Assembly: GCA_041737355.1 (NCBI GenBank)
Contig: JBGSRW010000003.1
Coordinates: 5,332-69,331, forward strand
Direction: 5' to 3'
DNA: 64,000 bases
Source: Patescibacteria group bacterium
Lineage (GTDB): Bacteria > Patescibacteriota > Patescibacteriia > XYB2-FULL-38-15
The notes beneath the pieces were generated by a model, which was given only the letters and a program-made list of their open reading frames with translations, was not told the DNA's origin and searched no databases. A program made the position numbers and the translations under genes. Every line of letters starts with the position of its first letter. Position 1 is the first letter of the stretch. This document shows, one piece after another, positions 31,496 through 62,323 of the stretch.

Positions 31496-31500
31496 GTTTT

Positions 31501-32097: not shown

Positions 32098-32100
32098 AAA

Positions 32101-33780: not shown

Positions 33781-33783
33781 AGC

Positions 33784-35913: not shown

Positions 35914-35936
35914 CTAATCAACTATTTTCAAAATCT

Positions 35937-36305: not shown

Positions 36306-36320
36306 AACGACATACCAAAA

Positions 36321-36351
36321 ACCAGCGGGCATTTTACCCGCTGGTTTTTTA
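36321..36351 (+). terminator. Rho-independent terminator after mscL
   Basis: accagcggg-catttta-cccgctgg followed by tttttt. Confidence 0.7.
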
Positions 36352-36364
36352 TCTTACAAAAAAA

Positions 36365-38715: not shown

Positions 38716-38718
38716 AAA

Positions 38719-39780: not shown

Positions 39781-39785
39781 ATTTT

Positions 39786-40154: not shown

Positions 40155-40167
40155 AGATTTTGCGGCG

Positions 40168-40833: not shown

Positions 40834-40848
40834 AAGGCTTATTACGGA

Positions 40849-41886: not shown

Positions 41887-41906
41887 ATTATACTGATACT
41901 AATTAA

Positions 41907-44129: not shown

Positions 44130-44232
44130 ATTTTAATAATTATAGCACTGCTCTTCCTAAAAGACAAACGAAAAATGGGCAAGAATATTTCCTGCCCATT
44201 TTTCTCTTTGAATAGAGCAAATCCTGGATTTG

Positions 44233-46125
44233 TTACCTGATTGTATCGCTAATTGTCCGCGACGAGGCTTCAACTGAGGCCTTGCTATAATCGGACGACG
44301 AATTTATATTTGCGCCGCCCTCAATATAGTTTGTCCGGAAAACTTCCGGCACGGCAATAATCTTTTTTTCCCAATCAGCGCCGTAAAGCGCCGAGGCCGC
44401 GCTGGCGGAGGTTACCCAGCGCAACTGGCTACTGGCCTCAAGGGCATAAATTTTGGGATCCAAAACGCGGAAGGGAGTATCCATGCTGACGAATTGGACA
44501 AGATATGTGCCGGGCTTAGCGATAACGTTTCCCCCCAGGGGCGCTGACGTCACGGTTTCGTGGCTTACCGTTTTAATACCGGAAAACCCCGAATACCATG
44601 AAAAATAAATTGCCTGAGTCGGAAAAACATGCCGCTTTCCGTCTGTCCCGTAATAATAAACCGCCGTGCTGCCGCTTTCTTTAAAAAGATCGCCGTAGAC
44701 CAATCCGCTGGGCGGCGTGACGGCCGTAAAAGTCACTGTCGCAGTTTGAGTTATGGCCGTACTGTCAACGGTAGCTGTGAAAATCGATGTCCCGGCCGTG
44801 CCGGACCTTACCTGCAAAGTCGCCTGGCCTGAAGAATTTGTAATGCTGCCTCCTGATACCGAAGAAACCGTATCAGTGCTGCCCCGGCTAGAAGTCAAAA
44901 CTACGGTTTTCCCGGAAAGAGGATTGTCCGAGGCGTCGCGGACGGTCACGGAAACCGTCGCGTAAGAACTATTATCCGCCGATACCGAAGATGGCGTAAC
45001 GTAGACGCTTGACCTTGAAGCGGAAACCGGACCGGGTGTCGGTGTTGTTGAAGTAAAAGTCACGGTAGCGGTTTCGGCAATGACCGTGCTGCCGGTTGTG
45101 GCTGTAAAAACAGAACTCCCCGCGGTGTTGGAATGAACTTGGAAATAAGCCTTGCCGTCGGAACCGGTTGTCCCTGTCATACTTACAATTGTATCTATAG
45201 CCCCCCTGGTTGAAGAAAGCGTGACCACTCTTCCGGAGAGCGGGCTGCCCGAAGAATTTTTTATTGTAGCCGTAATAACTGAAATCGACGAACCGTCGGC
45301 GACAACAGAAACCGGTGAAGCCGAAACAGTTGACTGGCTGGCGGAAACTGTCAGAGCCGGATCGGTCGTTGTCCTAAAACTCCAAGGATTACTCACGGCT
45401 GGCGAGATGCCGGTAGAAACCAAATATCCAATCTTATCTTCCCCCGTTGCCGTAACTGTCACATTGGTATCGTAAGGGAGAGTCAGCAATCTTGACCGAG
45501 TCACTGCGTTGCCACTCCACGACGGCGGGCCCCAGCTGCCGGATGAAATAGATATGCTCACCGTTCCGGTATTCATCGGCTCGGAAAAAGTTACTCTAAC
45601 AAATGACGACGTCACGCTCACTCCGGTTGCCCCGGCGGTTGGCACGGTTGAAAGAATAACCGGCGAAGCATTGTCGTCAACATTAACTAGGGTCTGATCA
45701 GGAGCCGCCACGCCCAATACCATGACACTGCCCAAAGTTCCCTGATTGGTATAATCAATATCCGCAGGAACAAAAGTTCCCGGATAACCGGTCTCGCCCG
45801 TGTTGCCGGAAACAAGAAGATAAAAATAATTTGTTGAACCATCACAGTTTGCATCAGATCCGGAGCCGTTTAATCTTCCTGTCGGAGCGGACAACCCGAT
45901 GCTTCCGCCGCCGATAACCCAATCACCAGCCTCGAATTGGCAACTTGTGACATTAAGGTCAAAAGTCACCTTAAGGCGGTCAATCGTGCCGTTGTGGTCA
46001 GCGTCCGAAAAAGCGGCGGACACTAAAGTTGGTGTCCAAGCCAAGGCCACCTGCGGTAATGCCAAACTGAATCCGCTCATTGCCAAAATGGTTGCCACAA
46101 CGAGAAAAATTCTAATTTTTTTCAT
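44233..46125 (-). CDS. Secreted Ig-like (Big-type) domain protein with the shared YYYG-DGKR-VFP C-terminal module
   Basis: 630 aa. Signal peptide MKKIRIFLVVATILAMSGFSLALPQVALA. Thr/Ser-rich Ig-like repeats (TATVTFT). C-terminal module GDLFKESGSTAVYYYGTDGKRHVFP...SWY...VKTVS. Confidence 0.6.
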   Translation of the reverse strand: MKKIRIFLVVATILAMSGFSLALPQVALAWTPTLVSAAFSDADHNGTIDRLKVTFDLNVTSCQFEAGDWVIGGGSIGLSAPTGRLNGSGSDANCDGSTNYFYLLVSGNTGETGYPGTFVPADIDYTNQGTLGSVMVLGVAAPDQTLVNVDDNASPVILSTVPTAGATGVSVTSSFVRVTFSEPMNTGTVSISISSGSWGPPSWSGNAVTRSRLLTLPYDTNVTVTATGEDKIGYLVSTGISPAVSNPWSFRTTTDPALTVSASQSTVSASPVSVVADGSSISVITATIKNSSGSPLSGRVVTLSSTRGAIDTIVSMTGTTGSDGKAYFQVHSNTAGSSVFTATTGSTVIAETATVTFTSTTPTPGPVSASRSSVYVTPSSVSADNSSYATVSVTVRDASDNPLSGKTVVLTSSRGSTDTVSSVSGGSITNSSGQATLQVRSGTAGTSIFTATVDSTAITQTATVTFTAVTPPSGLVYGDLFKESGSTAVYYYGTDGKRHVFPTQAIYFSWYSGFSGIKTVSHETVTSAPLGGNVIAKPGTYLVQFVSMDTPFRVLDPKIYALEASSQLRWVTSASAASALYGADWEKKIIAVPEVFRTNYIEGGANINSSSDYSKASVEASSRTISDTIR

Positions 46126-46210
46126 AGATTTATTTAATTTATGAATTAATTATACTTTTCACTCCACTTACTAATATAACGATAACTGAGCCAAAATCTT
46201 TCAAAGACTT

Positions 46211-49200
46211 TTAATAGATGCTCGCCAAAGACGGCTCTTTCATGGTAATCGAAGCGCCGTTCGGGAAATAGATCATATCCGAGGCGGGAAGAACATTACT
46301 CCAGAGGAAATTGTTGGCGGTGAAAGCCGCTTCGGAGACGACCATTCTTTTCTCCGCGCCCTGGACGTAATAGACATCGGACAACGTGGCGTATTTGATT
46401 AGAGCGCCGGTCGGATAAGAATCGGTTGTAATGTCCGGACCGAAGTTATAATCTCCCCAAAAAATTAATGGCACATCGACAACTCTCTTGGCCCAATCAT
46501 TTCCGTACAATGTTTTGGCCCTGGCCTCGGTCGGCACCCAGCGCAGAAGGCCGTTCGGTTCAACCGCGTAAACCTTCGGGTCGGTTTGAATTTTTACCAA
46601 TACCGTTCCTCCTCTTACCACTACGTTTTTACCAAGTGAAATGCCCCTCAACTGATCGTCGGAAACCGTTTTAACGCCGGACCAATCAAGATACCATGTC
46701 CGGTAAGTCAGGGAATTCGGAAAAAGATGGCGTTTATTGTCCGAACCGTAATAGTAAACTGCCGAACTCAAACTGCTCTTGATTAAATCGCCCACTTTAA
46801 GACCTGAAGGAATTTCTACGGGCGGCGGAGTTGCTCCGCTTGCGAAGATCACGGCAGCTGTCTGGTCGATAACTACTCCGCCGGCATTGGCCGTGTAAGT
46901 TGAAGTGCCCGCTGTGCCTGACTTTACTTTGAAAGTAGCTTTCCCGTCTGCACCGGTTGTGCCAGCAACAGTGGTTACCGTATCGGTTGCCCCGCGGCTT
47001 GAAGAAATGGTTACTGCTTTTCCGGAAAAAGCGGCGCCCGATTCGTCTTTTGCCGTAATAGTGATAGTCGATTCGCTAACTCCGTCAGCAATAAGCGAAG
47101 ATGGGGAAGCAATAATAGTCGACTTGGAAGCGGAGACCGTCGGAGCAGTGTAGTTGATGATGAAATCGGCGTCGGAAATATCAGAGGCCAAAAGACCGCC
47201 GGCGCTGTCATAGCCGTCGATTTTTATTTTTGCCGTTCCGGAAGAAATGTTTGGCACGGTCCATAAGTAAGTTCCGTCATTTGCCTCGTCTTCGGCAACA
47301 ACATTGGCAAAGGTCACGCCGCGATCGGTTGAGTAATATAATTTGACTTTACTGACACCCGTTCCGGTTGAAAACCAGGTAATGTTGCGACTGGAATTAC
47401 CGGCCCAAGCCTCTCCGCCGTTCGGCGCGTTCAAGGTAATCGTAATCGGCGCACCTCCGCCCCCTCCGCCACCGCCTCCGCCTCCACCAGCAACAGTAGT
47501 AAAGCTCCATGGATTTGGCACTAAGCTCCCCGACAATGAATTAGCAGATGGATCATCTCCTGCTGTAATTTGCTGGGTATAGCTGGTGCTATTTGCAAAT
47601 GCTGTATGAGAATAAGTCGCGATGCTACTTCCTCCAGACCAAACCGCTGCCCAGCCACCTGGGTTAGGAGCTGAAGTTTTAATCACTGTGCCAGTATTCA
47701 TCGGTTCGCTGAAAGTGACTACCACACTTGCTGTTGTCGTGGCTCCTGTTGCTCCACTAGCCGGCGAAGTACTGACAATAAACGGCGCAGCCCAATCATT
47801 ATAAATTGCCTGAGTCTGTTCCACCCCGGCATTATTTATATTGCCGGCTGCATCCTCTAAAGAAAATGGAATCCCGCCTCCCTGGCTGAAAATACGTATC
47901 GTCCCCGCATTGTTTGTATCAACAACGGTCGCTTCCGTGCCCAGACTAACGATTGTGGAGGAAACTGTGCCTGTAATCAAATCAGTTGCATCCGGACCAA
48001 AACCGGCGCCGTCAAAATCACCGTCATCAAATAGATTCAAATTGTCAGCGCTTAGGGTGCTTGCAGCCACTACTGGTTCTGAATAACCAACAGTAAAGCG
48101 GTCAATCTTGCCATCAAAATCCGAGTCCTGATAGGAAAAATATCTAATAACCGGTGCCGCGCCGTCGGCCGCATTGCCCGGAGCTCCGGCTGTATTCAAA
48201 TCATTGCCATACAAATCCTGTGCATTGGCGGAAGTCCAGGTCAAAGCAGGAGTAGCACCCGTATCGGGAGTACCGCTTTCTGTCAAAGCGTAAACTAAAG
48301 TTGTTGTACCCGTTCCGGAACTGGCACCTATATTCACAGGATAACCGGTAACGGCAAAAGCATTATAATCAGGATCCACGGTTGCTTCGGTATAAACGGC
48401 GGTTATCCGATCGATTTGGCCATTGCCATCTGCATCACCCGTGGTAACAGTGATACCACCGGTGCCGGAAGTATCAATAACTATATTGCTCGTATCGGCG
48501 ATATTATTGGGAGCGCCGGGAACACCCGAACCGCTCTGGTAATTACCAACCACATCATATACGCCTTCACCTCCGAATGGAATCGAACTTACTGTCAGGT
48601 CTGCGGAATCTTCACCGCTATTGGTGGGACCGACATTATAAAAACCATAAACAGTGTTACCGGAGACATTACCCCACCCCACGGTTACACCATTATCCAA
48701 AGTAATGGTAAGTGAACTTGCGCCTGATAAAGGTTCATCGTAAGTGGCGGTAACGTTAACGCTCGATCCGGGTCCATAAGTATCGTCAGCAGTGGTTGAA
48801 GTGAAACTCACCAATGTAGGTGCGGTCACGTCGATTACAATATCGCCAGCATCGCCAATGTTATTTGGCGCACCAGGAACACCGGAAGCCGCCTGAATAT
48901 TGCCATACAAATCAGTCGCACCTTCGACCGTAATTGAGGCAACGGTCAGATCCGAAGAATCTTCACCGCTGCCCGTTGCGCCAACCCAATAGGTGCTATC
49001 CAAAACACTGCCGGTAATATTATTTAAGACGACAGCAACGCCATTATCCAAAACTACGGTAACCGAACTACCACCGGCTAAAGGTTCGTCATAATTGGCG
49101 GCGACATTAACAGGAGATCCCGGTCCATAAGTACCATCCGCTGCAAGTGAAGTAAAGCTTTGTAGAGTCGGCGCAACGGTATCTTTGAATACTGTGCTTG

Positions 49201-51871
49201 TAGATGGCCCGCCCGAATTTAATGCCGGATCGGTCAACTGTACTGTAAGAGTAAGTACGCCGTCAGCCAACGATGAAACATCTATCGGTCCTATTGTATC
49301 GGTAGGTGTTGCAATTATTCCTGATCCTATTACCGTACCTAAAGCCGTATCTCTGATTGTATAATCATATGTTGATCCAACTTCTGCGCCAGTAAAAGTG
49401 AAAGTTAATGCAGTTTCATTTGCAAAATTAATATAGGGCTGATCAATCGCCGCCGTATATCCAAAAGGAGCGGCCCCGTCGTCCACCATAACCGGCCCGC
49501 CTGGCGGGGTAGTTTCGGCAAAGTTATAGCCGATCACCGCGATTGTGTCCGAAACGCTGTTATTGTTGTCGCCATTATTATATAAAATAGTCGGGTCAAC
49601 GGCGCCGCCGGTTTCACCAGCGTCAGCTGTGATTAAAACATCAAGAGTAAAACCTGCGCTCGCGTCATCAGGAGCAGAGGAAAAAGCCGCATTTATATCG
49701 CCTCCGGTAATTGTCCAATCACTGATGGTACTAGTGCTGCCGCCGGGCGCTGTCCCCATAAGCACATGTTCCGACCAAGTCGTTTCAATGGTATCAACTG
49801 TTCCGTCGCTATTATTATCAAGATATTCGGCGGAAACAATAACCGGCTTTGCAGCGTCGAGCACGGTTGTGGTTGAGATATTAGCCGCGTTATTTCCGTT
49901 CAAATCCGCAATGTATTGAGTAGAATATGTGTAAGCAATCTGCGGCTCCACTCCTCCGCCCCAGCCCGCGACGCCGGTTTGGTCTGGCGAAGTTCCGCTG
50001 ACATCAAGGATAATAAAACCACTCATCCCATTAGCGCAACCCAAGCCGCCAAAAGCGCAGCCGGAAACATCAAAACCGGTCAAGTCGTTGGCTGTTGCCG
50101 TCCACTCGCTGTCATCGTAGGCGGTGCCCAAGGCGGCATAAGTCACCGGCTCGGAATAAAGAATCAGCAAGTCGTTAACTATGTTGTTTGGTGTTTCAGG
50201 ATAAGCTATGCGACTATCGCCGGCGGTCACCGTGCCGGAAGTATCAAGGTCGTCATAAACATATTCTTTTCCCGGAGACCAAGTGCCGTCAGCGCCGGTA
50301 ACTTTACACTGAGTAAGTGTTTCGATAACGCTACCGATATCACCATCTCCTCCTGCGACTGTGGAGCCGGACGAGTAAGTCCCGCTAAAGACCTCTGTAA
50401 GCCTCACATCACCAATGGATACAAGGTTATTTGTGTCGTTGTCAGTATAAACATCTTCGCCACCATCCCATTGATTGGCCGTGCCGCCGGTTCCCACAGC
50501 GCAATTGACCAAAGATTGAATTGCTAAACCAATGTCTACATCCCCTCCACCAACCGTTCCCGGAGTGCCCGGCGCGGTATCCATATTCACATAACCAGTG
50601 GCCAGAAAAACCGGTAAAGCTTTATCCGTGGAAGCAACCGGCGCACCGTCAACTGCTAAAAGATTTCCCGCCGTGTCAGCCAGATTTCCGTTAGCCGTTA
50701 TTTGGGTATTTGGCGTAGCGGCCGTGTCGCAACCACTCTGGTCAAAAATGCCGCAAGTTCCGGCATTTTCCACCAATAAAACCCTGAAAATATTATCATT
50801 TGAAACCGCGCCGGTGTCGTAACCGGTTACCGTGTAACCTGCCACGGTTATTGTCAAACTGGAAAAATTATCATTTAAATTTTCCGAAGCGGTAAAATTA
50901 ATTTCGTCGATTTTCCCGTTACTGCCCGCATCGCCCGTTTCGCGAGCCGTCACAACCGGATTTAACGTATCAACTGAAATACCTTCTCCCCCTCCGACAT
51001 AGGCAGTCTGGAAATTACCATGCTGATCTTTGGCTCCAGTAATGTTATCAACGGTTAAAGTCTGGGCTTCATTCACGTCAGCCACAGTGAATTTGCTGCG
51101 GAAAGTGTTTTGATCCAGCCATTTATAGGATGGCAAACCCTCTATAGGCTCCAAAGTCAAAGTGCCTGAAGTGATAATGTCGGGGAGAAAGCCTACCGTA
51201 GGATTTACGGACGAATCCATAGTGTCCCAAGGAGTGCCTCCAACGGCGGCAATATTGGCGTAATCATAAGTGAGATGAAATATTCCCGCAGTGACAACCG
51301 AATCGTTTATGAAAGTAGTACTTGGGGAAACGGCAGATACTACCGGCGCCGATGTATCAACTATATTCGCCATGCTATTGCTGAGTAGTGTTACGCCACC
51401 AAGGTCATCGCTATCTCTGGCAGTTACGACCACCTGTGAGGCCGCATTACCCGCGCCAACATCAATACCACTGGCGGCAGCATCGAGTATCACAAAATCA
51501 AGCCGCCAAACATCTCCCGCGCCATTATTGCAGGTTTGCACCGCCAAAACTTCCGTAGCCGTCCCGCCGTATTTTGCTAAATCAACTGTTGCGGTTGGAA
51601 GAGAAGTTGTACAATCGCCATTTGCTATATTATCAGCGTTAGTGATAGTCGCATCAATTCGGATAGTATCTCCAATATTGGCAAATGTATTTACGTCTGC
51701 ATCAGTTAACAATGTTAATGAAACATTATTAATGGTGATACTTAGCGGTGCGGCCTTAACTTCATTTTTTGACATATTCACGTAAATGCCGATACCCAAA
51801 CTAAAAATCATCGAGATTGCCACCGACACCGGCAATATTTTGAAAAATCCTTTTTTAAATTTTTCTGCCAT
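46211..51871 (-). CDS. Giant secreted cell-surface protein (1886 aa) with Ig-like/cadherin-like repeats, a poly-Gly linker and the shared module at the C-terminus
   Basis: Signal/anchor at the N-terminus. Long beta-rich, Thr/Gly/Asp-rich repeats. The G14 run is encoded around 47452-47493. C-terminal GDLIKSSLSSAVYYYGSDNKRHLFP...WY...VKTVS. Confidence 0.65.
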   Translation of the reverse strand: MAEKFKKGFFKILPVSVAISMIFSLGIGIYVNMSKNEVKAAPLSITINNVSLTLLTDADVNTFANIGDTIRIDATITNADNIANGDCTTSLPTATVDLAKYGGTATEVLAVQTCNNGAGDVWRLDFVILDAAASGIDVGAGNAASQVVVTARDSDDLGGVTLLSNSMANIVDTSAPVVSAVSPSTTFINDSVVTAGIFHLTYDYANIAAVGGTPWDTMDSSVNPTVGFLPDIITSGTLTLEPIEGLPSYKWLDQNTFRSKFTVADVNEAQTLTVDNITGAKDQHGNFQTAYVGGGEGISVDTLNPVVTARETGDAGSNGKIDEINFTASENLNDNFSSLTITVAGYTVTGYDTGAVSNDNIFRVLLVENAGTCGIFDQSGCDTAATPNTQITANGNLADTAGNLLAVDGAPVASTDKALPVFLATGYVNMDTAPGTPGTVGGGDVDIGLAIQSLVNCAVGTGGTANQWDGGEDVYTDNDTNNLVSIGDVRLTEVFSGTYSSGSTVAGGDGDIGSVIETLTQCKVTGADGTWSPGKEYVYDDLDTSGTVTAGDSRIAYPETPNNIVNDLLILYSEPVTYAALGTAYDDSEWTATANDLTGFDVSGCAFGGLGCANGMSGFIILDVSGTSPDQTGVAGWGGGVEPQIAYTYSTQYIADLNGNNAANISTTTVLDAAKPVIVSAEYLDNNSDGTVDTIETTWSEHVLMGTAPGGSTSTISDWTITGGDINAAFSSAPDDASAGFTLDVLITADAGETGGAVDPTILYNNGDNNNSVSDTIAVIGYNFAETTPPGGPVMVDDGAAPFGYTAAIDQPYINFANETALTFTFTGAEVGSTYDYTIRDTALGTVIGSGIIATPTDTIGPIDVSSLADGVLTLTVQLTDPALNSGGPSTSTVFKDTVAPTLQSFTSLAADGTYGPGSPVNVAANYDEPLAGGSSVTVVLDNGVAVVLNNITGSVLDSTYWVGATGSGEDSSDLTVASITVEGATDLYGNIQAASGVPGAPNNIGDAGDIVIDVTAPTLVSFTSTTADDTYGPGSSVNVTATYDEPLSGASSLTITLDNGVTVGWGNVSGNTVYGFYNVGPTNSGEDSADLTVSSIPFGGEGVYDVVGNYQSGSGVPGAPNNIADTSNIVIDTSGTGGITVTTGDADGNGQIDRITAVYTEATVDPDYNAFAVTGYPVNIGASSGTGTTTLVYALTESGTPDTGATPALTWTSANAQDLYGNDLNTAGAPGNAADGAAPVIRYFSYQDSDFDGKIDRFTVGYSEPVVAASTLSADNLNLFDDGDFDGAGFGPDATDLITGTVSSTIVSLGTEATVVDTNNAGTIRIFSQGGGIPFSLEDAAGNINNAGVEQTQAIYNDWAAPFIVSTSPASGATGATTTASVVVTFSEPMNTGTVIKTSAPNPGGWAAVWSGGSSIATYSHTAFANSTSYTQQITAGDDPSANSLSGSLVPNPWSFTTVAGGGGGGGGGGGGAPITITLNAPNGGEAWAGNSSRNITWFSTGTGVSKVKLYYSTDRGVTFANVVAEDEANDGTYLWTVPNISSGTAKIKIDGYDSAGGLLASDISDADFIINYTAPTVSASKSTIIASPSSLIADGVSESTITITAKDESGAAFSGKAVTISSSRGATDTVTTVAGTTGADGKATFKVKSGTAGTSTYTANAGGVVIDQTAAVIFASGATPPPVEIPSGLKVGDLIKSSLSSAVYYYGSDNKRHLFPNSLTYRTWYLDWSGVKTVSDDQLRGISLGKNVVVRGGTVLVKIQTDPKVYAVEPNGLLRWVPTEARAKTLYGNDWAKRVVDVPLIFWGDYNFGPDITTDSYPTGALIKYATLSDVYYVQGAEKRMVVSEAAFTANNFLWSNVLPASDMIYFPNGASITMKEPSLASIY

Positions 51872-52049
51872 ATTTTTCTAAAATTATTTATTTTTTTATA
51901 TTAAAAAACCCTCTTTCGAGAGTATTAAAATTCTTTCCCTCCTGCGGGGTCTTGTAGAAAACGACAAGCACGGGTAAATTTTCATAACTTCTCTTAGTCT
52001 ATAAAATATTCCCAAATTTAGCAAGGAATCTTATCCACACGCTTGTGGA

Positions 52050-54215
52050 TTACTCAATATAGAGAGCTCTTCCTGCAAGGGGTAATCCCTCTACCAAATA
52101 TCCCAAGGCATCTTTATCGCCGTCGTTCCATTCAAAATTATTTTTGGAAAAATCTTCTTCGGCACCGTCGCCCAAAAGATTGACCCAAACTTTTTGCGGA
52201 CCGTACTGACTTCCATAAATTAAACCAGAAGTGTTAAGTTCTAAAACCAAAGTCCGCGTTGCGCCGGCGGCAACGAAAATTTCTGAGCCGTAATTAAAAG
52301 TAAATTTCAAAATGCCATAATCGTTTTCGTTGGTCTCGAAACCGGGCGAAGCGACAACCGTCCTCGTGCTTGCGTCATAAATTCCGTAGGAAATACTGCC
52401 GGAATATCCTTCAGCCAGGGCATTATCCAAATTTTCGGCAAAATGCAAATCGGCATGGCCGATATTATTTCCGTAATCTGAATTAATTTCAAGCAATTTT
52501 TCCAACAAATCATTGCTTGTCCCGTCCGTGTCAACATCGTCTGAATAAACCGCGAAAGTCAGTTCCTTAACTTTAGACGGACCGGCCTCATCGGAGGCAA
52601 TATCAAATTTCGTTACCTCGGTAAATCCCCTGCCGGCCGGACCGAGCGGTGTTTCCGGATTCAGGGTAACCTTGATTTTTGTTTTTTTAATCAACATTTC
52701 GGCCGCGGCCTTGGCCTTGTTTTCAATCTGGCCGTATCCAAAATTTATATCCCAAAAATCAACCCCAGAAATTTGTCCTTCGGCTTCAAAATCGGTCTCG
52801 GTCAAGGTGAAAGACGGCCGGTCGCCGCTTATAGCTCCTCCGGCCGAAGTTTTAATATCGGCAAAAATTGAAAGTATCGCTCCTTCGCGCGGCACATAAA
52901 AATCTAAATCGTAGAAAGTTATTTTTCCAAGCCAAAGATTTTCTATTTTTGTTACAATTGTCCCGTCCCATTTCGGATAACTTATCCAAATTTTTTTGAT
53001 ATTCCGGTCATAATCTGGCAATTTATTGACTAATGAAATTTTCTTGACCAAAAACGGCTCATTCACCCCGGAAAATTTCAATCGGTTGAATTCGACTCCC
53101 AACCTTCCCATCGGAACAATCGCCGAACTTGGCGCGCCGATATCCGTTTCTATTTTCAAAATTCCGTTGTGCAAAATGGTTATTATGGCGAGTGGTTTTG
53201 CCCCGCCGTTTGGCTCGTCGCCCGAAGCCGAAATAAATTTTCCTAACCCGTCTTTTGCCTCAATGTCCTGGCCTGCCTTAGAAATATCAAAAGCGAAACG
53301 GTCGTCGTTCAGATACGGCGCCCCGGAATAGAAATCAACTTTAACGAATAAATGTTTTGTCGCTCCGGCCGGAATCGTCCAGTCCAAATTTTGAAAATAA
53401 ATTTTTCCGTCAACTGCCGGGGAAACGGGGCCGGCCAAAAGATTCCCTTCCTCGTCGTAAAGATAAACTAAAGAAACCAAATCCTGGATATAAACCGGCG
53501 AACCGTCATCCGAATCGTTACCAATGCCAAAATCAGGATCGCCCTGAACTTCGTCAACATAACTCGTTAAAGCCAATTTGGTTATGGTGATATCGCTCCC
53601 CCCGCCCACTCCGAATCTGAAAGCCGCGGCCGAAACCAATTTGCTATTTTTCACGTAAACGGCGGAGGAAACTCTGTCGGAAAAAGAAATCGCCAAGCTT
53701 CCCGGCCCAATCGGCTCTACCGGCGTCGATGCCGGTTCCCCGGAGAGAATCGGCTCGCCGATTTTGTAGCCGGCAAAAATAATTTCCGGCAAATCGTCAA
53801 TCAAACTCTGCCAATTTGTTCCGTAGCGCGAGACGGCTATCTCTGGCGTCGCAAGATGGCGCAAGAGACCATACTCGCTTACCTCGTAAACTTCCGGGCG
53901 GTTCGGCAATTTCAGAAGCCTAATCCCTGGTTTATAAAAACGGGCCCCGCCCGGGAAAATATTTTCCAGTTCTGCCCCGCTTATTGTTTTTACTCCGGAA
54001 AAATCGTTGTACCAGGAACGGTAGGTTTTTTCGTTCGGAAAAACATAGCGCTTGCCGTCACTCCCAAGATAATAAACCGCCGGCGAACTGCCTTTTATAA
54101 GGTCGCCAGCGGAAAAAGTTATTGCTTTGGCTTCGTGAAAAATGGAACAACAGAAAAAAATGAAGCTAAAAAAACAAAATAATCTAAAAGTATTATAATT
54201 TTTCCATTTAGACAT
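52050..54215 (-). CDS. Secreted large protein with the shared module at the N-terminus
   Basis: 721 aa. Signal peptide, then GDLIKGSSPAVYYLGSDGKRYVFP...SWY...VKTIS. The rest is beta-rich with no known motif. Confidence 0.6.
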   Translation of the reverse strand: MSKWKNYNTFRLFCFFSFIFFCCSIFHEAKAITFSAGDLIKGSSPAVYYLGSDGKRYVFPNEKTYRSWYNDFSGVKTISGAELENIFPGGARFYKPGIRLLKLPNRPEVYEVSEYGLLRHLATPEIAVSRYGTNWQSLIDDLPEIIFAGYKIGEPILSGEPASTPVEPIGPGSLAISFSDRVSSAVYVKNSKLVSAAAFRFGVGGGSDITITKLALTSYVDEVQGDPDFGIGNDSDDGSPVYIQDLVSLVYLYDEEGNLLAGPVSPAVDGKIYFQNLDWTIPAGATKHLFVKVDFYSGAPYLNDDRFAFDISKAGQDIEAKDGLGKFISASGDEPNGGAKPLAIITILHNGILKIETDIGAPSSAIVPMGRLGVEFNRLKFSGVNEPFLVKKISLVNKLPDYDRNIKKIWISYPKWDGTIVTKIENLWLGKITFYDLDFYVPREGAILSIFADIKTSAGGAISGDRPSFTLTETDFEAEGQISGVDFWDINFGYGQIENKAKAAAEMLIKKTKIKVTLNPETPLGPAGRGFTEVTKFDIASDEAGPSKVKELTFAVYSDDVDTDGTSNDLLEKLLEINSDYGNNIGHADLHFAENLDNALAEGYSGSISYGIYDASTRTVVASPGFETNENDYGILKFTFNYGSEIFVAAGATRTLVLELNTSGLIYGSQYGPQKVWVNLLGDGAEEDFSKNNFEWNDGDKDALGYLVEGLPLAGRALYIE

Positions 54216-54228
54216 TGAACAAATTAAT

Positions 54229-55914
54229 TTATTCTATATTTTTATCCTGCCCGACCGTCAAAACCGCCTGTTCGGCTGCGAGACTGTAATCGGCAACAGC
54301 GTTAATTTCCGTTCCGATCGTGTAATTAGCGAGCAATGCTTCCGGAATAGCAATAATTTGTCCCTCCCAAGTCCCGCCCCAGATTGAAGCAGCTATTTCC
54401 GCGGTTTTAACCCAGCGGAGAACGCCGCCTTTTGAAACGGCATAAACCTTAGGATCCATGACATGCCATGGGGTATCCATGCTGACTACCTGGACTAATT
54501 TGCCTGGGCGAACAGTCACATTTCCGCCGAATGGGATTGCAATGAGATCCGCGTCAGACAGGGTCCGGACAGTTGAAAAACTTGTACCATACCACGAGAA
54601 ATATGCGGCTGCGTATGGGAATACATATCTCTTCGCATCGGCGCCATAGTAATAAACGGCTGTGCCGGAACTGCGGATAAGACCTCCGGCAACTAAGGAC
54701 ACGGCGCTGAAATTAATTGTTGGTTTTTGGTTTAAAGAAATGTTGGAAGCAACCGCGGTCAAAACCGAGCTCCCGGCCTCGCTTGAGCTTATTTCAAAAA
54801 TGGCAATTCCGTCCGTGCCGGTTGTGTCTTTGACTACCGTAATTTTGTCGGCTGTCCGGCTTGAGGTTATGGAAACGGTTTTCCCCGATAAAGGGCTGCC
54901 TGCAGAATTTTTTACGGTCACGGTCACGCTGGCTTTTGCCATACCATCTGCCAAAAGAGTCGTCGGAACCGCTTCAATCGTGGACAAACTTATTGAAGGA
55001 GAAATCAGGGCTGTCTGGTCAACCGTCACGGCGATGCCAGCGCCCGGCGTTTCGTTGTTGCCAATCCAGTCGGTGCCATAAACTTTAATCACATAGCTAC
55101 CACTTGCAATTGCCGTCCAATTATATTCCCAAGTCGAATAGTTTGCTCCGATGCCTGTCACGTCAACCCAATTATCAGCCCCGCCGACCGGAGCGATGGA
55201 AATTTTCACCAAAGCCGGAGTTGAACCGCCCTGGTCGCGGGAAACTCCGCTAATTTTATAAGTTGTTGTGGAAATCGTCGCACCGTCGTTCGGATCCAAA
55301 ATCAAAGTTTTTGGCGCGCTGACATCGGTTGAGGAGGTCAAGATTGTCTGATAATTCGGATTGATAATTGTTTCAGCCGGACCCATTGCCGAACCTAAAA
55401 ACAAACCTGTGTCGCCGATATCAAATTGGCCGATCGTTCCGCCGTCAAGCAAACCCGGGATTTTCATCCGCACGGTTTTTTGCGCCGTAATCGCCGCTCT
55501 TGAGGCTGTTTCAATGCTTACAAAAAGGCGCAGGCCCGAGCTTGGAACTGCCTTTGATAAATCTGCCAGATACCAATACTCGCCAATTTCCGTTCTTGTT
55601 GCTTCGCCTAATTTTTCATCAACTTCCATTCCCTGGAAACCGGCCGGACCGGCGTCGACCCAGACCACGACTTTGGAAATTTCGTAAATATTGCGGGCTG
55701 TTCCGTCGTTCGCCAAGGTTATTGCCCGAAGCGTATCGGCCATTCCGTCTGTCCGCGCCACGGTGAAATCCATGGCCAGCCGGTCAAACTCGGAAGGATA
55801 AAAATAAACCTGCGGCGCCCCGGTGTTTGTGACCGTAAGCGTTGCGGCAACCGCGCCCACTGGAAAGCAAGGCAGGATAAGCGAAAATGCTACTAAAAAA
55901 ATGATTTTTTTCAT
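54229..55914 (-). CDS. Secreted Ig-like domain protein with the shared module at the C-terminus
   Basis: Likely start is the ATG at 55914 (MKKIIFLVAFSLILPCFPVGA signal peptide). The track ORF extends to 55977 and overlaps the TPR gene. C-terminal GGLIRSSGTAVYYYGADAKRYVFP... is about 80% identical to the N-terminal module of the 56723-60289 protein. Confidence 0.6.
   Translation of the reverse strand: MKKIIFLVAFSLILPCFPVGAVAATLTVTNTGAPQVYFYPSEFDRLAMDFTVARTDGMADTLRAITLANDGTARNIYEISKVVVWVDAGPAGFQGMEVDEKLGEATRTEIGEYWYLADLSKAVPSSGLRLFVSIETASRAAITAQKTVRMKIPGLLDGGTIGQFDIGDTGLFLGSAMGPAETIINPNYQTILTSSTDVSAPKTLILDPNDGATISTTTYKISGVSRDQGGSTPALVKISIAPVGGADNWVDVTGIGANYSTWEYNWTAIASGSYVIKVYGTDWIGNNETPGAGIAVTVDQTALISPSISLSTIEAVPTTLLADGMAKASVTVTVKNSAGSPLSGKTVSITSSRTADKITVVKDTTGTDGIAIFEISSSEAGSSVLTAVASNISLNQKPTINFSAVSLVAGGLIRSSGTAVYYYGADAKRYVFPYAAAYFSWYGTSFSTVRTLSDADLIAIPFGGNVTVRPGKLVQVVSMDTPWHVMDPKVYAVSKGGVLRWVKTAEIAASIWGGTWEGQIIAIPEALLANYTIGTEINAVADYSLAAEQAVLTVGQDKNIE
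54301..54700. repeat. Dispersed repeat copy A, module-coding DNA; about 80-85% identical to 59770-60170 and includes an exact 39-nt match at 54421-54459
   Basis: By-eye alignment of the two regions. The exact shared 39-mer is aacgccgccttttgaaacggcataaaccttaggatccat. Confidence 0.7.
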
Positions 55915-55936
55915 AAAGCTTAATTTATTTAAAAAA

Positions 55937-56599
55937 TTATTTCTTAAGCTCTTCCAAATCTTTCTTTGCTGTTTCATTATCCGGCGATAGTTTTACCAAT
56001 TTTTCATACCACATAATTGCCTCTTCTTTCGGACCGAACTCTTTGTAATAAACCGCGAGTTGTCCAACAAATTCAGCCTCTATTTCTGGATTATTTTTAA
56101 TGCCTTTCTTTAGAATTACGGGTATCTCTGCCCTTTTCCCCGGCAACTGATAATGGTAAAGATCTACCAAGCTGCGGTAAGCGGAAAGCCATTTAGGGTT
56201 TGTATCAATAATTTTCAAATAGGCCACTTCTGATTTGTCGTACTGCTGATTTCTTGTGTAAAGCTCGGCAACGTTCCCCAAAAGCAAAGTATCGGTCGGC
56301 CTAATTTCGAGGGCTGCTTCGTAAAGTTTTATTGCTTCAACGATGTCTCCCTTTTCCCTTTTCCAGGAAGCCAAGGCAAGATAGGCATCAACGTTTGTCG
56401 CGTCAGTCTTTAATTTTTCATAGGCATCTTTGATATTGGCCGGCAGTTCTTCCGCCTTTTCCCCGGAAAAAAGAGAAACAACGTAATTTTTCAGGTCTCC
56501 AACCTTCCCCTGCCAACGCCAAGTCTGCCAGGCCAAAAGCCCGCCTAAAATGAAAACAACCGCTACAACAACAATAATAATTTTTGCTTTTTTGGACAT
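55937..56599 (-). CDS. Membrane-anchored tetratricopeptide-repeat protein
   Basis: 220 aa. N-terminal TM (IIIVVVAVVFILGGLLA). At least four TPR-like helical repeats (AYLALASW..., AIKLYEAALEI..., AELYTRNQQYDKSEVAYLKII...). Confidence 0.7.
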   Translation of the reverse strand: MSKKAKIIIVVVAVVFILGGLLAWQTWRWQGKVGDLKNYVVSLFSGEKAEELPANIKDAYEKLKTDATNVDAYLALASWKREKGDIVEAIKLYEAALEIRPTDTLLLGNVAELYTRNQQYDKSEVAYLKIIDTNPKWLSAYRSLVDLYHYQLPGKRAEIPVILKKGIKNNPEIEAEFVGQLAVYYKEFGPKEEAIMWYEKLVKLSPDNETAKKDLEELKK

Positions 56600-56669
56600 A
56601 TTTTTTCCTCCCTTTTAATTCTAAGGACTTACCTTTATTTTATCACAAAACATTGATTGCGGCAAAATC

Positions 56670-56703
56670 AAAACAGGGAGCCGGAGAGGCTCCCTGTTTT
56701 TTC
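56670..56703 (-). terminator. Rho-independent terminator 3' of the 1188-aa surface protein gene (hairpin usable on both strands)
   Basis: acagggagcc-ggaga-ggctccctgt flanked by T-runs on both strands. Confidence 0.6.
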
Positions 56704-56722
56704 TATTTCAACGAATAACCGA

Positions 56723-59700
56723 CTAGTAGCTCATGGCTCCGCCATTGACTGGCAGGTTCTTGGTCGTGGTCAAATCAACAGTGGCGAGAGAGCTGTCTGC
56801 CCAAATCACACCTGAAACGTTCCAGGTTCCTCCAGCAAGTGTGTACTGAAGAGTGTTCGGGTTAACAGCGCCCGTTGTATCACCGTTTAACTTGACAACC
56901 AAGGTTGAACCAGCGCCAATCTGCAAAGTGTTGGCGAAAGTGCCCATGGTAGTCGTATTCAAAGGACCGGATAACCAGTTACCGGCGCCTATGAAATCCC
57001 AGTAAGTAACGGTAGCGGCGTCATTGCACCACTTCGCGTTAGCAGGACCAGCTACAACAGCTGTGCCTGACTTCTGGTTTTCGAGTTCAATAATCGTGAT
57101 GTCATCACCGGTTGCCACAAAGTTCAGTTTCAAGACGTCTTTGCCAATGCCGGCTGTCTGAGTGCCAGACGGTGAGCCGGAATTTAAGCTGACAGTCAAG
57201 ATACCTTTGTGGATGGTGTAGGCATTTGAACCCCAGACGTTTCCAGCGCCAGTACCGAGGTCATCAATATTGGCCTGCGGAATGGTTACACCAGAGGATT
57301 GGCCATTGGCAATAATACTGTAGTTGCCAGCGCCGCCCCATTGTGTCCCGTCGCCGCTGGAATCGCCGATGCCAAAGTAGAATTCATCGGTACCGATCGT
57401 AACCGTACCGCTGCTGTCGGCGTCAGGGTTAACCTGGTCTTTCGGCGAAACATCAATTCTGAATTCAACATTCTTATAGCCATCCTTCGGGATGACCAAA
57501 GTGCCGGAATTCAAAACGATGTTACCCATACCGGTTGTCGGATTAAGAGTATAACCAGCCGTGTTGCCGGTCAAAACGCCGTCAACATAGAGGTAAACTC
57601 TGCCGACATTACCAATGTGGCCAGGATAAGCGACTTGAATGCCAACGAAGAACGGGATGGTTGTCACGTCAACCGGTTCCCATGTCGCGGAGAACTTGTA
57701 CTTCATCACCGAATTGTTGGTTGAAGAAGAAACAAGCTGAGCCGCAACCGGAAGATCGGCCGCTTTCGCGACAGTCAGTCTGCCGTTCGCTTGTAAGGTC
57801 TGGGCTTGGCCAGCTCCGGCAAAAAGCAACGCGGCATTGTTGCCGGTGTCTTTGCCAGTTGCTACCACGCCAGCCGCGGCAACATTGTATGTGTGAGTTT
57901 CACCGCCAGCAATCAAGGTGCCATCAACATCAGCTTTTAAAGTCAAGCGTGATGTGGCAGTCTTGGAAACAATAATCGGAGTCTGGAAGGTGAAGGTAAC
58001 AGTCGCGCCGTTAGTCGCGGTTGAGTTCGATGTGGTCAAACGGATATTTTCGGCTGTCGCATCTGTGTTGTCAGGATCGCCCCAGAGTTCAAGGTTTATG
58101 AGCTCAGGGAGTGTTGCGCCGCCACCAATGGTGTCGGTCACAATAACCTGTGAAACGCGGATGTTCTCGCCGCCGCCTGATGCGTCAAGATCAATATAGG
58201 CAAAGGCCTGATCCTGTGCATTGGCAACGATTGTTCCGGCAATCGGAGTCGCGGCTGTTGTTACGTTCAAGGCCGGACCCTGGAGGGTCTGGACATTTCC
58301 GAGTATGCCTGTCGCCGGAGGAACAAGCGGACCGGCTGAAGTGGTCCAAGTGGTCTTACCGGAATTGGCGCCTTTGGCCGTAATTTGGCCAGCCGCCATA
58401 TCGAGGCGGACTGTATCCAAAGCTACGCCCGTTGAGGAAACATCAACTTTTACCCAAACCGTGGTTGTACCGACCGGTAAGGTGTAGGAATCAGTGAAGG
58501 TGATTGTGTCGGTTCCAATAATATCAAGGATTGTCGCATCTCTATTTTTTGGTCCGGCTAAAACCGTACCATCAGCTTTATAGAGAGTCCAGTTGGTGAA
58601 TTTACCAACCGTTGCGCCAGTCGTGGTGTAGTTCATCACGGTTCTCGTGACGTTGACCGGTTCGCCGGCAACAACATAATCAAAGGCCATTACAGGAACC
58701 GCTGAAGCGCCAACGCCGATTTTACCGGTGGCTGGAGCTGAGGGGCTCTTTGAAACTGTTAAATAGCCCTGATTGATATCCTGTCTCGGACAGGTGAAAT
58801 CAGTGAAAGCCGCGACGCAGAAGTTGTTGAGGCCAGCCGGAGTGATGCCGAAGTTATAAGTGGCACCCTTAATCATCATGGTGAAAGCTGTGCCGTCATG
58901 GACATCAAAACCGAGATCTCTGCCTGAACCGCCGGCTACGTCAGCCTTAACTGAAAGGAGGACGTTGCCGCCTTTGGCAATCTGGATGTTCAAATTGGAG
59001 AAAACGACCCGGCCGTTTCCGTCCAAAGTGGTAGCAGTGCCAAGGACCGCTCCGGAGGTATCGTTATAAAGAACAATGTTCTTTATATCGGTGTTGGCGG
59101 CTGTGCCGTTCTTCAAGACCGTTAACTGGTCAAGAACGACTGGCTCGACCGCTCCGGCAGTAATTTTAACCTGCGAGAAGCGATAGCCGACAGCGTCAGC
59201 ATCAACATTGCCGCCATGGGTCGGATTTAACGGACCGGCGGTTACTGTTGCTGTGCCGATATTGGTGTTAACCAAACTCATGACATTGCCGTTCACCGGG
59301 AAGGTGCCGCCGACAACGGCGGTTGTGGTAACATCAGCCGAGTTGGCAATACCTAAGATGTGTTGATCGAAGGTTACTGGAAGGACAACGATGTCAGCCG
59401 CGATGACAACCTTCTGGGTTGCACCAGCCGCGATGACAATCGGGTTTGAGGACAAAGAAAAAGTTGCTTGATGCAACGATCCTAAGCTCTGCGAAGTGCC
59501 TCTTTGTATGCCGTCAACAAATAATTTGACAGCGGCAATGTTGGCATCCGCGCCTAAACCAGATCTTGTAACTTTAAGACCTGTAACGGTTGCTCCAGCC
59601 GGACCTGCAGTCAAGTTCAGATAAGTGAAATGAACATTGGCCGCGTTGTTCGGGATTGAAGCTGACATCGGAGTGTCTGAAGCCAAGGAAATGGTTACTC

Positions 59701-60289
59701 CACCGCCCGCGCCAGTCAAACCTTTGTCTTCGTTGATTGTGGCAACAGCTAATTGAGTCGCCAAACTATAATCTGAAGCATTGTTGATTTCTGTACCGAT
59801 CGTGTAGTTGGTCAGAAGTGATTCCGGAACAGCGACAATCTGACCTTCCCAGGCCGCGCCCCAAATTGAAGTGGCGAGTGCAGCGGTTTTAACCCAGTGC
59901 AAAACGCCGCCTTTTGAAACGGCATAAACCTTAGGATCCATTACTGCCCATGGTGTATCCATGCTAACAACCTGGAGTAATTTACCAGGATGAACGGTCA
60001 CATTGCCTCCGAAAGGAATAGCAACGAGATCCGCATCGGTCATGGTCTGAACTGTTCCAAAGCCTGTATACCATGAAGTATACGCAGCTTGGTACGGGAA
60101 GACATATCTTTTCGCATCAGAGCCGTAGTAATAGACGGCTGTGCCAGTCCCCTTGATCAAATCACCAGATGTAGCGGCATTAGCAGCCAATGGCAAAGCC
60201 AAGGCGCCGATACCGATAGACCAGACGATCGTGGTCAGGACGACTGTGAAGGCAAAGACTTTCTTCCCCTTCTTAATCAAATCGTTCAT
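56723..60289 (-). CDS. Giant secreted cell-surface protein (1188 aa) with the shared module at the N-terminus followed by long beta-rich repeats
   Basis: Signal peptide. N-terminal SGDLIKGTGTAVYYYGSDAKRYVFP...SWY...VQTMTDADL. Thr/Gly/Ala/Val-rich repeats. Confidence 0.65.
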   Translation of the reverse strand: MNDLIKKGKKVFAFTVVLTTIVWSIGIGALALPLAANAATSGDLIKGTGTAVYYYGSDAKRYVFPYQAAYTSWYTGFGTVQTMTDADLVAIPFGGNVTVHPGKLLQVVSMDTPWAVMDPKVYAVSKGGVLHWVKTAALATSIWGAAWEGQIVAVPESLLTNYTIGTEINNASDYSLATQLAVATINEDKGLTGAGGGVTISLASDTPMSASIPNNAANVHFTYLNLTAGPAGATVTGLKVTRSGLGADANIAAVKLFVDGIQRGTSQSLGSLHQATFSLSSNPIVIAAGATQKVVIAADIVVLPVTFDQHILGIANSADVTTTAVVGGTFPVNGNVMSLVNTNIGTATVTAGPLNPTHGGNVDADAVGYRFSQVKITAGAVEPVVLDQLTVLKNGTAANTDIKNIVLYNDTSGAVLGTATTLDGNGRVVFSNLNIQIAKGGNVLLSVKADVAGGSGRDLGFDVHDGTAFTMMIKGATYNFGITPAGLNNFCVAAFTDFTCPRQDINQGYLTVSKSPSAPATGKIGVGASAVPVMAFDYVVAGEPVNVTRTVMNYTTTGATVGKFTNWTLYKADGTVLAGPKNRDATILDIIGTDTITFTDSYTLPVGTTTVWVKVDVSSTGVALDTVRLDMAAGQITAKGANSGKTTWTTSAGPLVPPATGILGNVQTLQGPALNVTTAATPIAGTIVANAQDQAFAYIDLDASGGGENIRVSQVIVTDTIGGGATLPELINLELWGDPDNTDATAENIRLTTSNSTATNGATVTFTFQTPIIVSKTATSRLTLKADVDGTLIAGGETHTYNVAAAGVVATGKDTGNNAALLFAGAGQAQTLQANGRLTVAKAADLPVAAQLVSSSTNNSVMKYKFSATWEPVDVTTIPFFVGIQVAYPGHIGNVGRVYLYVDGVLTGNTAGYTLNPTTGMGNIVLNSGTLVIPKDGYKNVEFRIDVSPKDQVNPDADSSGTVTIGTDEFYFGIGDSSGDGTQWGGAGNYSIIANGQSSGVTIPQANIDDLGTGAGNVWGSNAYTIHKGILTVSLNSGSPSGTQTAGIGKDVLKLNFVATGDDITIIELENQKSGTAVVAGPANAKWCNDAATVTYWDFIGAGNWLSGPLNTTTMGTFANTLQIGAGSTLVVKLNGDTTGAVNPNTLQYTLAGGTWNVSGVIWADSSLATVDLTTTKNLPVNGGAMSY
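59770..60170. repeat. Dispersed repeat copy B (exact 39-mer at 59903-59941)
   Basis: See copy A at 54301-54700. Confidence 0.7.
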
Positions 60290-61741: not shown

Positions 61742-62323
61742 TTATTTAACTTTCCCGGGCATCTTATCTTTCAATGAATTTACCGCCCGATGAAGAAGAA
61801 CTCTAATCGACCCCTCCGGTTTTCCTAAAATTTCGGCTACTTCCTTTATTTCCATCTCCTCCACAAAACGCAACATAATTACTTCTCGGTACTCTCCTTT
61901 TATTTTTTGTAAAGCTTTTTTTACCGCCTCGAAGTCCGAACTCAATTCTATTTTTTCCGCCAGGTCTTGTTTCGGGTCGGCTATATCAACTTTTAATTGC
62001 TCATCGTCTCCGCCCGGTTCGTCCAGCGATTCCTCTCTCAAACCCTTGGTCCGGTAAAAATCTATAACCGTATTACGCGCCGTCTGGTAAAGAAAGGCCC
62101 TTAGATTATCGATCGCTTTGGAGTCTTTCTCGTTTATATACTGCCAGGTTTTCAAAAAAACTTCTCCGGTCAGGTCTTCAGCTTCTTCCTTGCTTGAAAC
62201 TTTAAAATAGATAAACCGATAAATTTCATCAACGTAAATATCATAAAGTTTGCCGTAGACGTCCGGGTCGCGGGTTGTTCGTAGCTTCAGGAATAAATAT
62301 TGTTCTTTCAAGCTTCTACTCAT
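61742..62323 (-). CDS. ECF-family RNA polymerase sigma-70 factor
   Basis: 193 aa. Region 2 (YDIYVDEIYRFIYFKV...AEDLTGEVFLKTWQ). Region 4 HTH (EVIMLRFVEEMEIKEVAEILGKPEGSIRVLLHRAVNSLK). Confidence 0.85.
   Translation of the reverse strand: MSRSLKEQYLFLKLRTTRDPDVYGKLYDIYVDEIYRFIYFKVSSKEEAEDLTGEVFLKTWQYINEKDSKAIDNLRAFLYQTARNTVIDFYRTKGLREESLDEPGGDDEQLKVDIADPKQDLAEKIELSSDFEAVKKALQKIKGEYREVIMLRFVEEMEIKEVAEILGKPEGSIRVLLHRAVNSLKDKMPGKVK

Follow-up and report, generated by a model that had tools for sequence, protein, structure and literature searches.

What task falls to a protein domain that stands at the front of some secreted proteins and at the end of others within a single gene cluster? The question is raised by a 64-kb stretch of contig JBGSRW010000003.1 from a Patescibacteria group bacterium (assembly GCA_041737355.1), analysed here as a whole and referred to as the window. 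In its region 44233-60289, five open reading frames (ORFs) on the minus strand, designated A, B, C, D and E, each carry one copy of a module of about 135 residues. The original prediction for this locus described five consecutive genes for giant secreted proteins with a conserved module of unassigned family, which might serve in cell-envelope anchoring or host attachment. The module shared by the five proteins is real and strongly conserved, and its recurrence is not due to chance.

The shared module and its predicted fold

All five ORFs originally predicted are present, and their N-termini, read from the translations, have a basic n-region, a hydrophobic stretch and an A-x-A-like site. As had been claimed, the module is C-terminal in three proteins and N-terminal, right after the signal peptide, in the other two. 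Protein A (44233..46125, minus strand, 630 aa) consists of a signal peptide, Big_5, two Big_1 Ig-like domains and the module (44284..44706, aa 474-614). Protein B (46211..51871, minus strand, 1886 aa) has a signal/anchor helix, a long acidic repeat-rich body, Big_5, Big_1 and the module (46415..46804, aa 1690-1819), whilst protein D (54229..55977, minus strand, 582 aa from the first ATG) has a signal peptide, a beta-rich body, Big_1 and the module (54283..54699, aa 427-565). In protein C (52050..54215, minus strand, 721 aa) the module (53736..54119, aa 33-160) precedes a body without a Pfam match, and in protein E (56723..60289, minus strand, 1188 aa) it (59765..60178, aa 38-175) precedes about seven to eight all-beta Ig-like domains. 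The description of the proteins as giant is apt for B and E, but not for A, C and D. Similarly, the genes do share the minus strand but are not strictly adjacent, since a 220-aa gene encoding a membrane-anchored tetratricopeptide repeat (TPR) protein (55937..56599, minus strand; Pfam TPR families) separates D from E. For D, the ATG at 55914 is probably to be preferred over the first ATG, judging from the sequence: translation from this start yields a protein of 561 aa, in line with the size of about 560 aa given originally, whose signal peptide is canonical (MKKIIFLVAFSLILPCFPVGAVAA), and the gene no longer overlaps its upstream neighbour by 41 nt. Alignments of D orthologues begin at residue 16-22.

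The five copies are 128-141 aa long and pairwise 39-77% identical by BLASTP (E 9e-21 to 5e-75), and they carry the consensus G(D/G)LIK..AVYYYG.D.KR.VFP...Y.SWY noted in the original prediction. Their conservation does not vanish in a proper multiple alignment, in which 29 columns are invariant across the five sequences. Moreover, a window-free profile, made from 67 database sequences of which none is from the window, matches all five copies (E 1e-53 to 4.5e-61 overall: 1.6e-59 for A, 4.5e-61 for B, 1.1e-53 for C, 7e-55 for D and 1.4e-57 for E), so that the conservation is not an artefact of alignment by eye. No other ORF of the window contains the module in an hmmsearch.

The module has an internal repeat. 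In a profile-profile comparison with hhalign, 58 columns of the first and second halves align end to end (E 3.2e-4), and the module is therefore read as a tandem duplication of an alpha/beta unit of about 60-70 aa, with the consensus G.LIK...VY.v..G.kR.v.....a...yg..w..V..v.d.....y..G..i. The conserved polar and aromatic residues are Y17, R25, F28, W37 and W111, joined in the window copies by D22, K24 and N60. The modules are near neutral, with isoelectric points (pI) of 5.1-9.1 in the window and a family median of 5.6. A possible degenerate third unit lies at the extreme C-terminus of B (46241..46414, minus strand, aa 1820-1877, with 1819 as an alternative start), where the match to unit 1 is weak (independent E value 6.2e-4 with the window-free profile and 0.019 with a hidden Markov model of unit 1). 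Unit 2 of the A, D and E modules contains an 8-residue insertion, SMDTP(W/F)..V, which is absent from B, C and most relatives. In E it lies around window 59900-59925, and it is also seen in a minority of relatives (P0152, P0129).

The original prediction could not assign the module to a known domain family, and this was borne out by the searches. In Pfam-A (2025 copy) and NCBIfam (2026), no profile matched the module in the whole proteins A-E, and no Pfam-A model matched it in 88 relatives. The sole Pfam matches of the isolated modules at E<=10 (Hexapep_2, AstE_AspA_hybrid and DUF5787) are noise. Searches of PDB sequences with profiles of 5 and 72 sequences gave only matches to the antibody framework motif 'TAVYYC' (E>=0.007), which are due to chance. 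Every named relative of the module is called 'hypothetical protein' in its source, and full-text literature searches found the module in Patescibacteria nowhere described. A preprint surveying surface-layer (S-layer) proteins, with Patescibacteria S-layer protein candidates, does not describe the module domain in its main text. On these sequence and literature searches the module is a large domain family without a Pfam or NCBIfam model, and no counterpart was found among PDB sequences or in the literature.

The AlphaFold model of the E module, built from the 72-sequence alignment, is confident (predicted local distance difference test score, pLDDT, 94; predicted template-modelling score 0.83) and has 3-4 short strands and two helices in each unit. 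Its sole block of lower confidence is the SMDTP insertion (pLDDT 79). In a Foldseek search of the PDB, ten EccB entries come first, including 7np7_B, 7nps_B, 5ebd, 4kk7, 3x3m, 3x3n, 5cyu and 5ebc, followed by a sharp drop to noise. The EccB matches have probabilities of 0.75-0.97 and E values of 3e-3 to 5e-2; their template-modelling (TM) scores of 0.33-0.38 are low, as would be expected if the two small units were hinged differently. Hence the novelty claimed for the module applies to the sequence family, which is without a known domain model, but probably not to the predicted fold, which seems to resemble the EccB repeat domains. Among predicted viral structures, the best match is Rhodococcus phage Weasels2 protein A0A1I9SA71 (TM 0.68/0.81, E 6.7e-6; root-mean-square deviation 2.6 A over 135 columns), followed by Streptomyces phage LukeCage protein A0A345MGB2 (TM 0.56/0.73). 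These whole-module matches to actinophage proteins suggest that the two-unit fold exists outside the candidate phyla radiation (CPR). Weaker matches to phage CHAP, amidase and lysin proteins are non-significant. No sequence relatives of the module were found in IMG/VR or, by tblastn, in GenBank phages, and PHROGs gave marginal matches to phrog_9616 only (E 0.03-0.04), from the C-terminal region of B and from P0058. The phage family phrog_9616 has a profile of 118 positions and is perhaps the counterpart of the actinophage proteins recovered in the structure search.

Family, cargo and conserved locus

The family is large. When 1.84 billion cluster representatives (clusters at 50% identity) were searched exhaustively with a profile, 4,790 of them matched at E<=1e-3, 3,879 at <=1e-10 and 1,744 at <=1e-30. 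In addition, 149 loci were confirmed in GTDB species representatives by means of one short sequence pattern. This pattern, AVYY[YL]G[SAT]D, was derived from the 5-sequence alignment, the 72-sequence alignment being too divergent for a pattern search; the taxonomic range seen is consequently skewed towards sequences with this pattern. The named loci belong to Candidatus Falkowbacteria, Uhrbacteria, Buchananbacteria and Magasanikbacteria and to Parcubacteria/Patescibacteria metagenome-assembled genomes (MAGs), and among named matches the family has so far been seen only in Patescibacteria. The closest named relatives are Candidatus Falkowbacteria (77-78% module identity), a lineage placed in the Parcubacteria group of Patescibacteria. 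The original view of the organism as CPR-type thus agrees with its nearest relatives, which are Falkowbacteria, Uhrbacteria and other Patescibacteria MAGs. Many module loci, including L005, whose contig is 78% identical in DNA to window 36935-45073, have contig titles reading 'uncultured Gammaproteobacteria bacterium', yet they are typical Patescibacteria loci. The title looks like a placeholder or mislabel, and with the nearest named relatives being CPR bacteria, the CPR assignment of the window is well supported.

The mobility of the module originally proposed from five proteins holds across the family, and extends to copies at both termini, in tandem and alone. In a set of 270 members, 231 copies of the module are N-terminal, 44 C-terminal and four internal, so that 275/279 are terminal. 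It occurs at both ends of P0122 and P0124-P0127 and twice in tandem in P0121 and P0138; isolated single units are also seen, and many members are proteins of about 180 aa consisting of a signal peptide and the module alone. The passengers of 88 longer members are Ig-like (Big_1 in 14, Big_7 in eight, Big_5 in four, fn3 in three), enzymes or inhibitors (purple-acid-phosphatase N in four, Peptidase_C25 in two, chagasin-type inhibitor in two), or further domains comprising GH114, GH10, glucose/sorbosone dehydrogenase (GSDH), PhoD_N, DUF3048 and beta-helix. An M23 peptidase and a cupredoxin-like domain are also among the passengers of the family. No SLH, LysM, CWB2, PG_binding or LPXTG-type domain was found in the 88 scanned relatives, and no SLH, LysM, CWB2 or LPXTG match in A-E.

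Within the window, the passengers are strongly acidic (pI 4.1-4.7), and the Ig-like or beta-repeat architecture originally described is recovered as Big_1 and Big_5 in A, B and D and as all-beta structure in the AlphaFold model of E. Proteins A, B and D have in common a C-terminal cassette of Big_5, Big_1 and the module. Their Big_1 (PF02369) scores lie above the gathering score of 34.9 (A 103 bits, B 53.5 bits, D 52.4 bits); in A, the Pfam E values are 9.8e-30 for Big_1 and 7e-8 for Big_5, and an L005 orthologue is 72% identical. Matches to inverse autotransporter adhesins (intimin, IatC) were rejected, as NCBIfam gave 19-20 bits against cut-offs of 1400-2400 and only the Ig-like region aligns. 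The body of B consists of long acidic repeats (pI 4.1, net charge about -144). Further features are 12 consecutive glycines near aa 1470 and a pair of tandem repeats of about 105 aa (…APTL.SFTS..AD.TYGPGS.VNV.A.YDEPL…). The bodies of C and E have no Pfam match, and that of C overlaps E-like ORFs of L002, L013, L059 and L065 in tblastn. The AlphaFold model of full-length E (pLDDT 81.8, built with 36 homologues) runs from a signal helix through the module and a short helical linker to about seven to eight all-beta sandwich domains. In Foldseek this model matched generic Ig-like strings only (PrgB, alpha-2-macroglobulin, integrin legs, titin, AgI/II), with no S-layer protein among the matches, and the idea of E as an S-layer protein therefore stays speculative.

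The E and D genes form the core of a locus conserved well beyond the window. The counts given here come from tblastn of the window proteins against 80 loci from the GTDB species-representative search. The same-strand order is glycosyltransferase family 4 (GT4), extracytoplasmic function (ECF) sigma factor, DUF5667 anti-sigma-like protein, E-like, (TPR), D-like, S8 protease with FG-GAP, and epimerase (examples being L004, L017, L007, L009, L021, L022, L024 and L030), and the locus recurs across MAGs of Falkowbacteria, Uhrbacteria and Buchananbacteria type. In the window, the ECF-type sigma-70 factor (61742..62323, minus strand; Sigma70_r2 and r4) lies directly upstream of the cluster, followed by the DUF5667 protein (60478..61737, minus strand; Pfam DUF5667 1.1e-9), which has an anti-sigma-like topology of a short N-terminal part, one transmembrane helix and a long extracytoplasmic coiled region. 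A protein with Sigma70 r2 and r4 followed by a single-pass membrane protein beside cargo genes is the arrangement of an ECF sigma/anti-sigma locus. The sigma gene is upstream of the E-like gene in 26 of the 29 loci with an E-like body (of the remaining three, two are interrupted by a contig end), and a DUF5667 gene stands between them in about 19-22 loci. At the other end of the cluster, the secreted S8 subtilase with C-terminal FG-GAP repeats (41907..44129, minus strand; Peptidase_S8 2e-47) is syntenic in 23 loci. The E/D core is thus accompanied in other genomes by the S8 protease and the ECF sigma factor, a co-occurrence that the original prediction had proposed to check. By comparison, the TPR gene is confined to the closest genomes, being syntenic in L001, L003, L004 and L017 and, more weakly, in L030, L043, L018 and L044. 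Full-length E homologues (~1100-1300 aa) account for 43 of the 145 best cluster representatives, and on sequence the E-like architecture is the most widely conserved of the family. Orthologues of D were found in L001, L004, L003, L017, L024, L022, L007 and others. Since L017 passes straight from D to the S8 gene, A, B and C appear to be lineage-specific insertions. The neighbourhoods of two stand-alone module genes (P0050, P0058) are unrelated and uninformative.

Comparison of these loci also indicates how the module evolves. Among E orthologues the median identity is 51% in the module and 24% in the body, and the high identity of the module beside a fast-changing body argues for strong constraint, for which a conserved ligand would be the simplest reason. 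When the E and D modules of one genome are compared, their identity is 64-80% in nine of the ten genomes with such a pair; in L030, the tenth, it is 49%. In the window the figure is 77% at the protein level and 78% at the DNA level (384 nt), although the two copies occupy opposite termini and proteins D and E are otherwise unrelated. In both the window and L017, the D module is nearer to the E module of its own genome than to any D orthologue, which suggests intragenomic module exchange or concerted evolution.

The cluster adjoins a nucleotide-sugar/glycan block (window 25248-41886) that encodes RmlA-like and RmlD-like proteins, an FdtA/WxcM-like isomerase, an RmlB-like dehydratase, a PMT_2 (GT-C) transferase, several GT4/GT2 proteins, DUF2304 and an epimerase. 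Its product could be a wall polysaccharide, or it could serve to glycosylate Ser/Thr-rich surface proteins. Peptidoglycan and division genes (window 885-16000 and 22721-23974) encode FtsE/FtsX, a DivIC-like protein, two Mur ligases, a MurG-type GT28, FtsW/RodA, a MraY-type GT4 and a MurA-type enolpyruvyl transferase. From the Mur ligases, MurG, FtsW, MraY and MurA, it is evident that the organism makes peptidoglycan. A 709-aa ORF without a Pfam match (33784-35913, plus strand) runs against the direction of almost every other gene. The long ORFs (157-158 aa, rich in Pro/Thr; 42238-42929, plus strand) that lie antisense to the FG-GAP region of the S8 gene are probably artefacts of repeat composition and not genes.

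Function of the module

By analogy, the module is most likely a non-covalent cell-envelope retention module, a reading held with slightly better than even confidence, and of the two functions originally suggested, anchoring would be favoured over host attachment. The proteins would be exported by Sec and their signal peptides then removed, after which the module would bind a conserved component of the cell's own wall. Candidate components are the glycan of peptidoglycan and a wall-linked polysaccharide made by the neighbouring sugar/glycosyltransferase genes. Through this binding the highly acidic and variable passenger, whether Ig-like or enzymatic, would stay at the surface of the cell. The conserved core cargo of the ECF-sigma-linked locus would be the E-like (~1200 aa) and D-like proteins, with E as a candidate major surface or S-layer-like protein, and A, B and C would be lineage-specific additions reusing the same anchor. 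Wall binding, the ligand and any S-layer role are proposed here by analogy, in distinction to the domain itself, its internal repeat, distribution, architectures and synteny, which are observed.

Anchoring is favoured because the module is a mobile, terminal and autonomous tandem-repeat domain behind a Sec signal, and because its passengers are mutually unrelated extracellular domains, as with SLH and CWB2 anchors. A tandem repeat of small units is, moreover, found in other wall-binding modules. The greater conservation of the module than of its cargo and the envelope location of its structural relative EccB point in the same direction, as do the peptidoglycan genes of the window and the flanking nucleotide-sugar/glycosyltransferase genes (RmlA, RmlB, RmlD, FdtA-like, GT2, GT4, PMT_2). 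Proteins A, B and D all finish in the module and lack a hydrophobic segment at the C-terminus; with no other known anchor in any of the five proteins, the module would be the only retention device left once the signal peptide is cleaved.

Several observations weigh against retention at the wall. The structural link to EccB is weak and indirect, given the low TM scores and modest E values cited above, and the binding of peptidoglycan by EccB repeats is itself only a suggestion of the authors concerned (PMC4769845). PlyCB is not among the top 50 PDB Foldseek matches. With a family median pI of 5.6 the modules are not basic, and charge-driven binding to anionic wall polymers is therefore unsupported. 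Finally, only one fusion to a peptidoglycan hydrolase (M23) is present among the relatives, and no phage lysin or phage contig with the module was found in IMG/VR or GenBank phages.

Among known systems, the CWB2 family is, by analogy, the closest functional counterpart of the five-protein cluster. The CWB2 triplet is found at the N- or C-terminus of 29 Clostridioides difficile paralogues, among them proteases, adhesins, wall enzymes and the S-layer protein, and it binds a wall polymer non-covalently, its genes being clustered (PMC4973711). The likeness to CWB2 (PF04122) extends to clustered genes, a common module, varied cargo, a protease and adjoining glycan-synthesis genes. However, CWB2, which holds proteins in the wall fraction by binding the polymer PSII, has three units whereas the present module has two, with a predicted fold like that of EccB repeats, and the systems belong to Firmicutes and Patescibacteria, respectively. 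SLH domains anchor S-layer and surface proteins non-covalently to a secondary wall polymer (PMC4973711), and SLH (PF00395) likewise consists of tandem units, each about 55 aa long, which are attached to one or the other end of S-layer proteins and of surface-retained glycosidases and proteases, although as an all-helical triplet and not the alpha/beta doublet seen in the model of this module. Neither PF04122 nor PF00395 gave a profile match in A-E, in the isolated modules or in the 88 relatives.

EccB repeats are units of about 55-65 aa that occur in pairs in the cell envelope, each built of two helices and a four-stranded sheet, and their authors liken them to the wall-binding PlyCB subunit (PMC4769845). 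The repeats R1-R4 are the only coherent PDB structural neighbours of the module; nevertheless, EccB (PF05108) gave no Pfam match at E<=10 and no EccB chain appeared in the PDB sequence searches. The module proteins lack the EccB core domain, an EccB-type N-terminal membrane anchor and nearby ESX genes, their neighbours being sigma, anti-sigma, TPR, S8 and glycosyltransferase genes. EccB has four repeats, whereas the module comes as a cassette of two units attached to either end of unrelated proteins. The profile tests thus rule out that the module belongs to CWB2, SLH or EccB. The link to PlyCB, which is absent from the top 50 PDB matches, is second-hand via EccB, and the phage searches brought up no phage-encoded module relatives. 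The two uncharacterised actinophage proteins give the best whole-module structural matches and have the two-unit fold, but are only about 16% identical, and no sequence-level match came from phage genomes or IMG/VR.

An alternative is that the module is a protein-protein docking or oligomerisation domain, which would join cargo to an envelope scaffold or S-layer lattice in the manner of cohesin and dockerin, or self-assemble into rings or dimers. The neighbouring structures are oligomeric, in that EccB assembles into multimers within the ESX complex and PlyCB into an octameric ring (PMC4769845). The near-neutral charge of the module and the abundance of ~180-aa proteins of signal peptide and module would also suit docking, and the membrane-anchored TPR and DUF5667 proteins, as conserved neighbours, could be the partners. 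Nevertheless, the TPR gene is limited to the closest genomes, no partner gene co-occurs with dispersed family members, and the contexts of stand-alone copies are unrelated. The conserved Y17, R25, F28, W37 and W111 (with D22, K24 and N60 in the window) would fit a small-ligand site equally well, and docking is considered unlikely.

Host attachment, in the form of a lectin-like adhesin head that binds the surface of a host or partner cell, has in its favour that this group of CPR bacteria is generally regarded as episymbiotic, that the module is rich in conserved aromatic residues like those of carbohydrate-binding sites, and that some proteins have two modules. The architecture speaks otherwise, since in the commonest arrangement the module is the first folded element behind the signal peptide, and the variable string of Ig-like domains comes only after it. 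A conserved module on fast-evolving proteins is the opposite of what host-specific recognition across candidate phyla would produce, and fusions to hydrolases, proteases and inhibitors need retention, not adhesion; an adhesin head therefore seems distinctly improbable. A sorting or secretion tag for dedicated export or processing, of the type IX secretion system C-terminal domain or sortase type and removed by the neighbouring S8 protease, is very improbable despite the conserved protease and the terminal position of nearly all copies, because the module occurs at either terminus, both or internally, always behind an ordinary Sec-type signal peptide, is predicted to be a well-folded 135-aa domain of two units, and has no secretion-system genes at its locus.

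The Patescibacteria cell surface

An anchor module common to a clustered family of surface proteins is a kind of system well known in Firmicutes. The CPR bacteria, or Patescibacteria, are mostly uncultured; their surface proteins are thought to mediate host attachment, and almost none can be annotated. A wider form of the wall-anchor reading, offered tentatively and at clearly less than even confidence, is that the module could be the general wall anchor of a large Patescibacteria branch (Falkowbacteria, Uhrbacteria, Buchananbacteria, Magasanikbacteria and relatives), using an EccB-repeat-like fold to recognise a conserved wall glycan. It would then be the CPR counterpart of SLH and CWB2 and would define the whole surface proteome, and the putatively ECF-sigma-controlled E-like protein of about 1200 aa might be the long-sought S-layer or major envelope protein observed on ultra-small groundwater bacteria.

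A profile of the module, which tags thousands of secreted proteins, would provide a direct handle on the CPR surface proteome and would nominate a candidate for the major envelope or S-layer protein, together with its putative sigma/anti-sigma regulator. As a small domain predicted to fold well (pLDDT 94), the module should be expressible for work on wall and glycan binding. Wall binding, if demonstrated, would also lend experimental support to the role in wall binding that has been proposed for the EccB repeats in mycobacterial type VII secretion.

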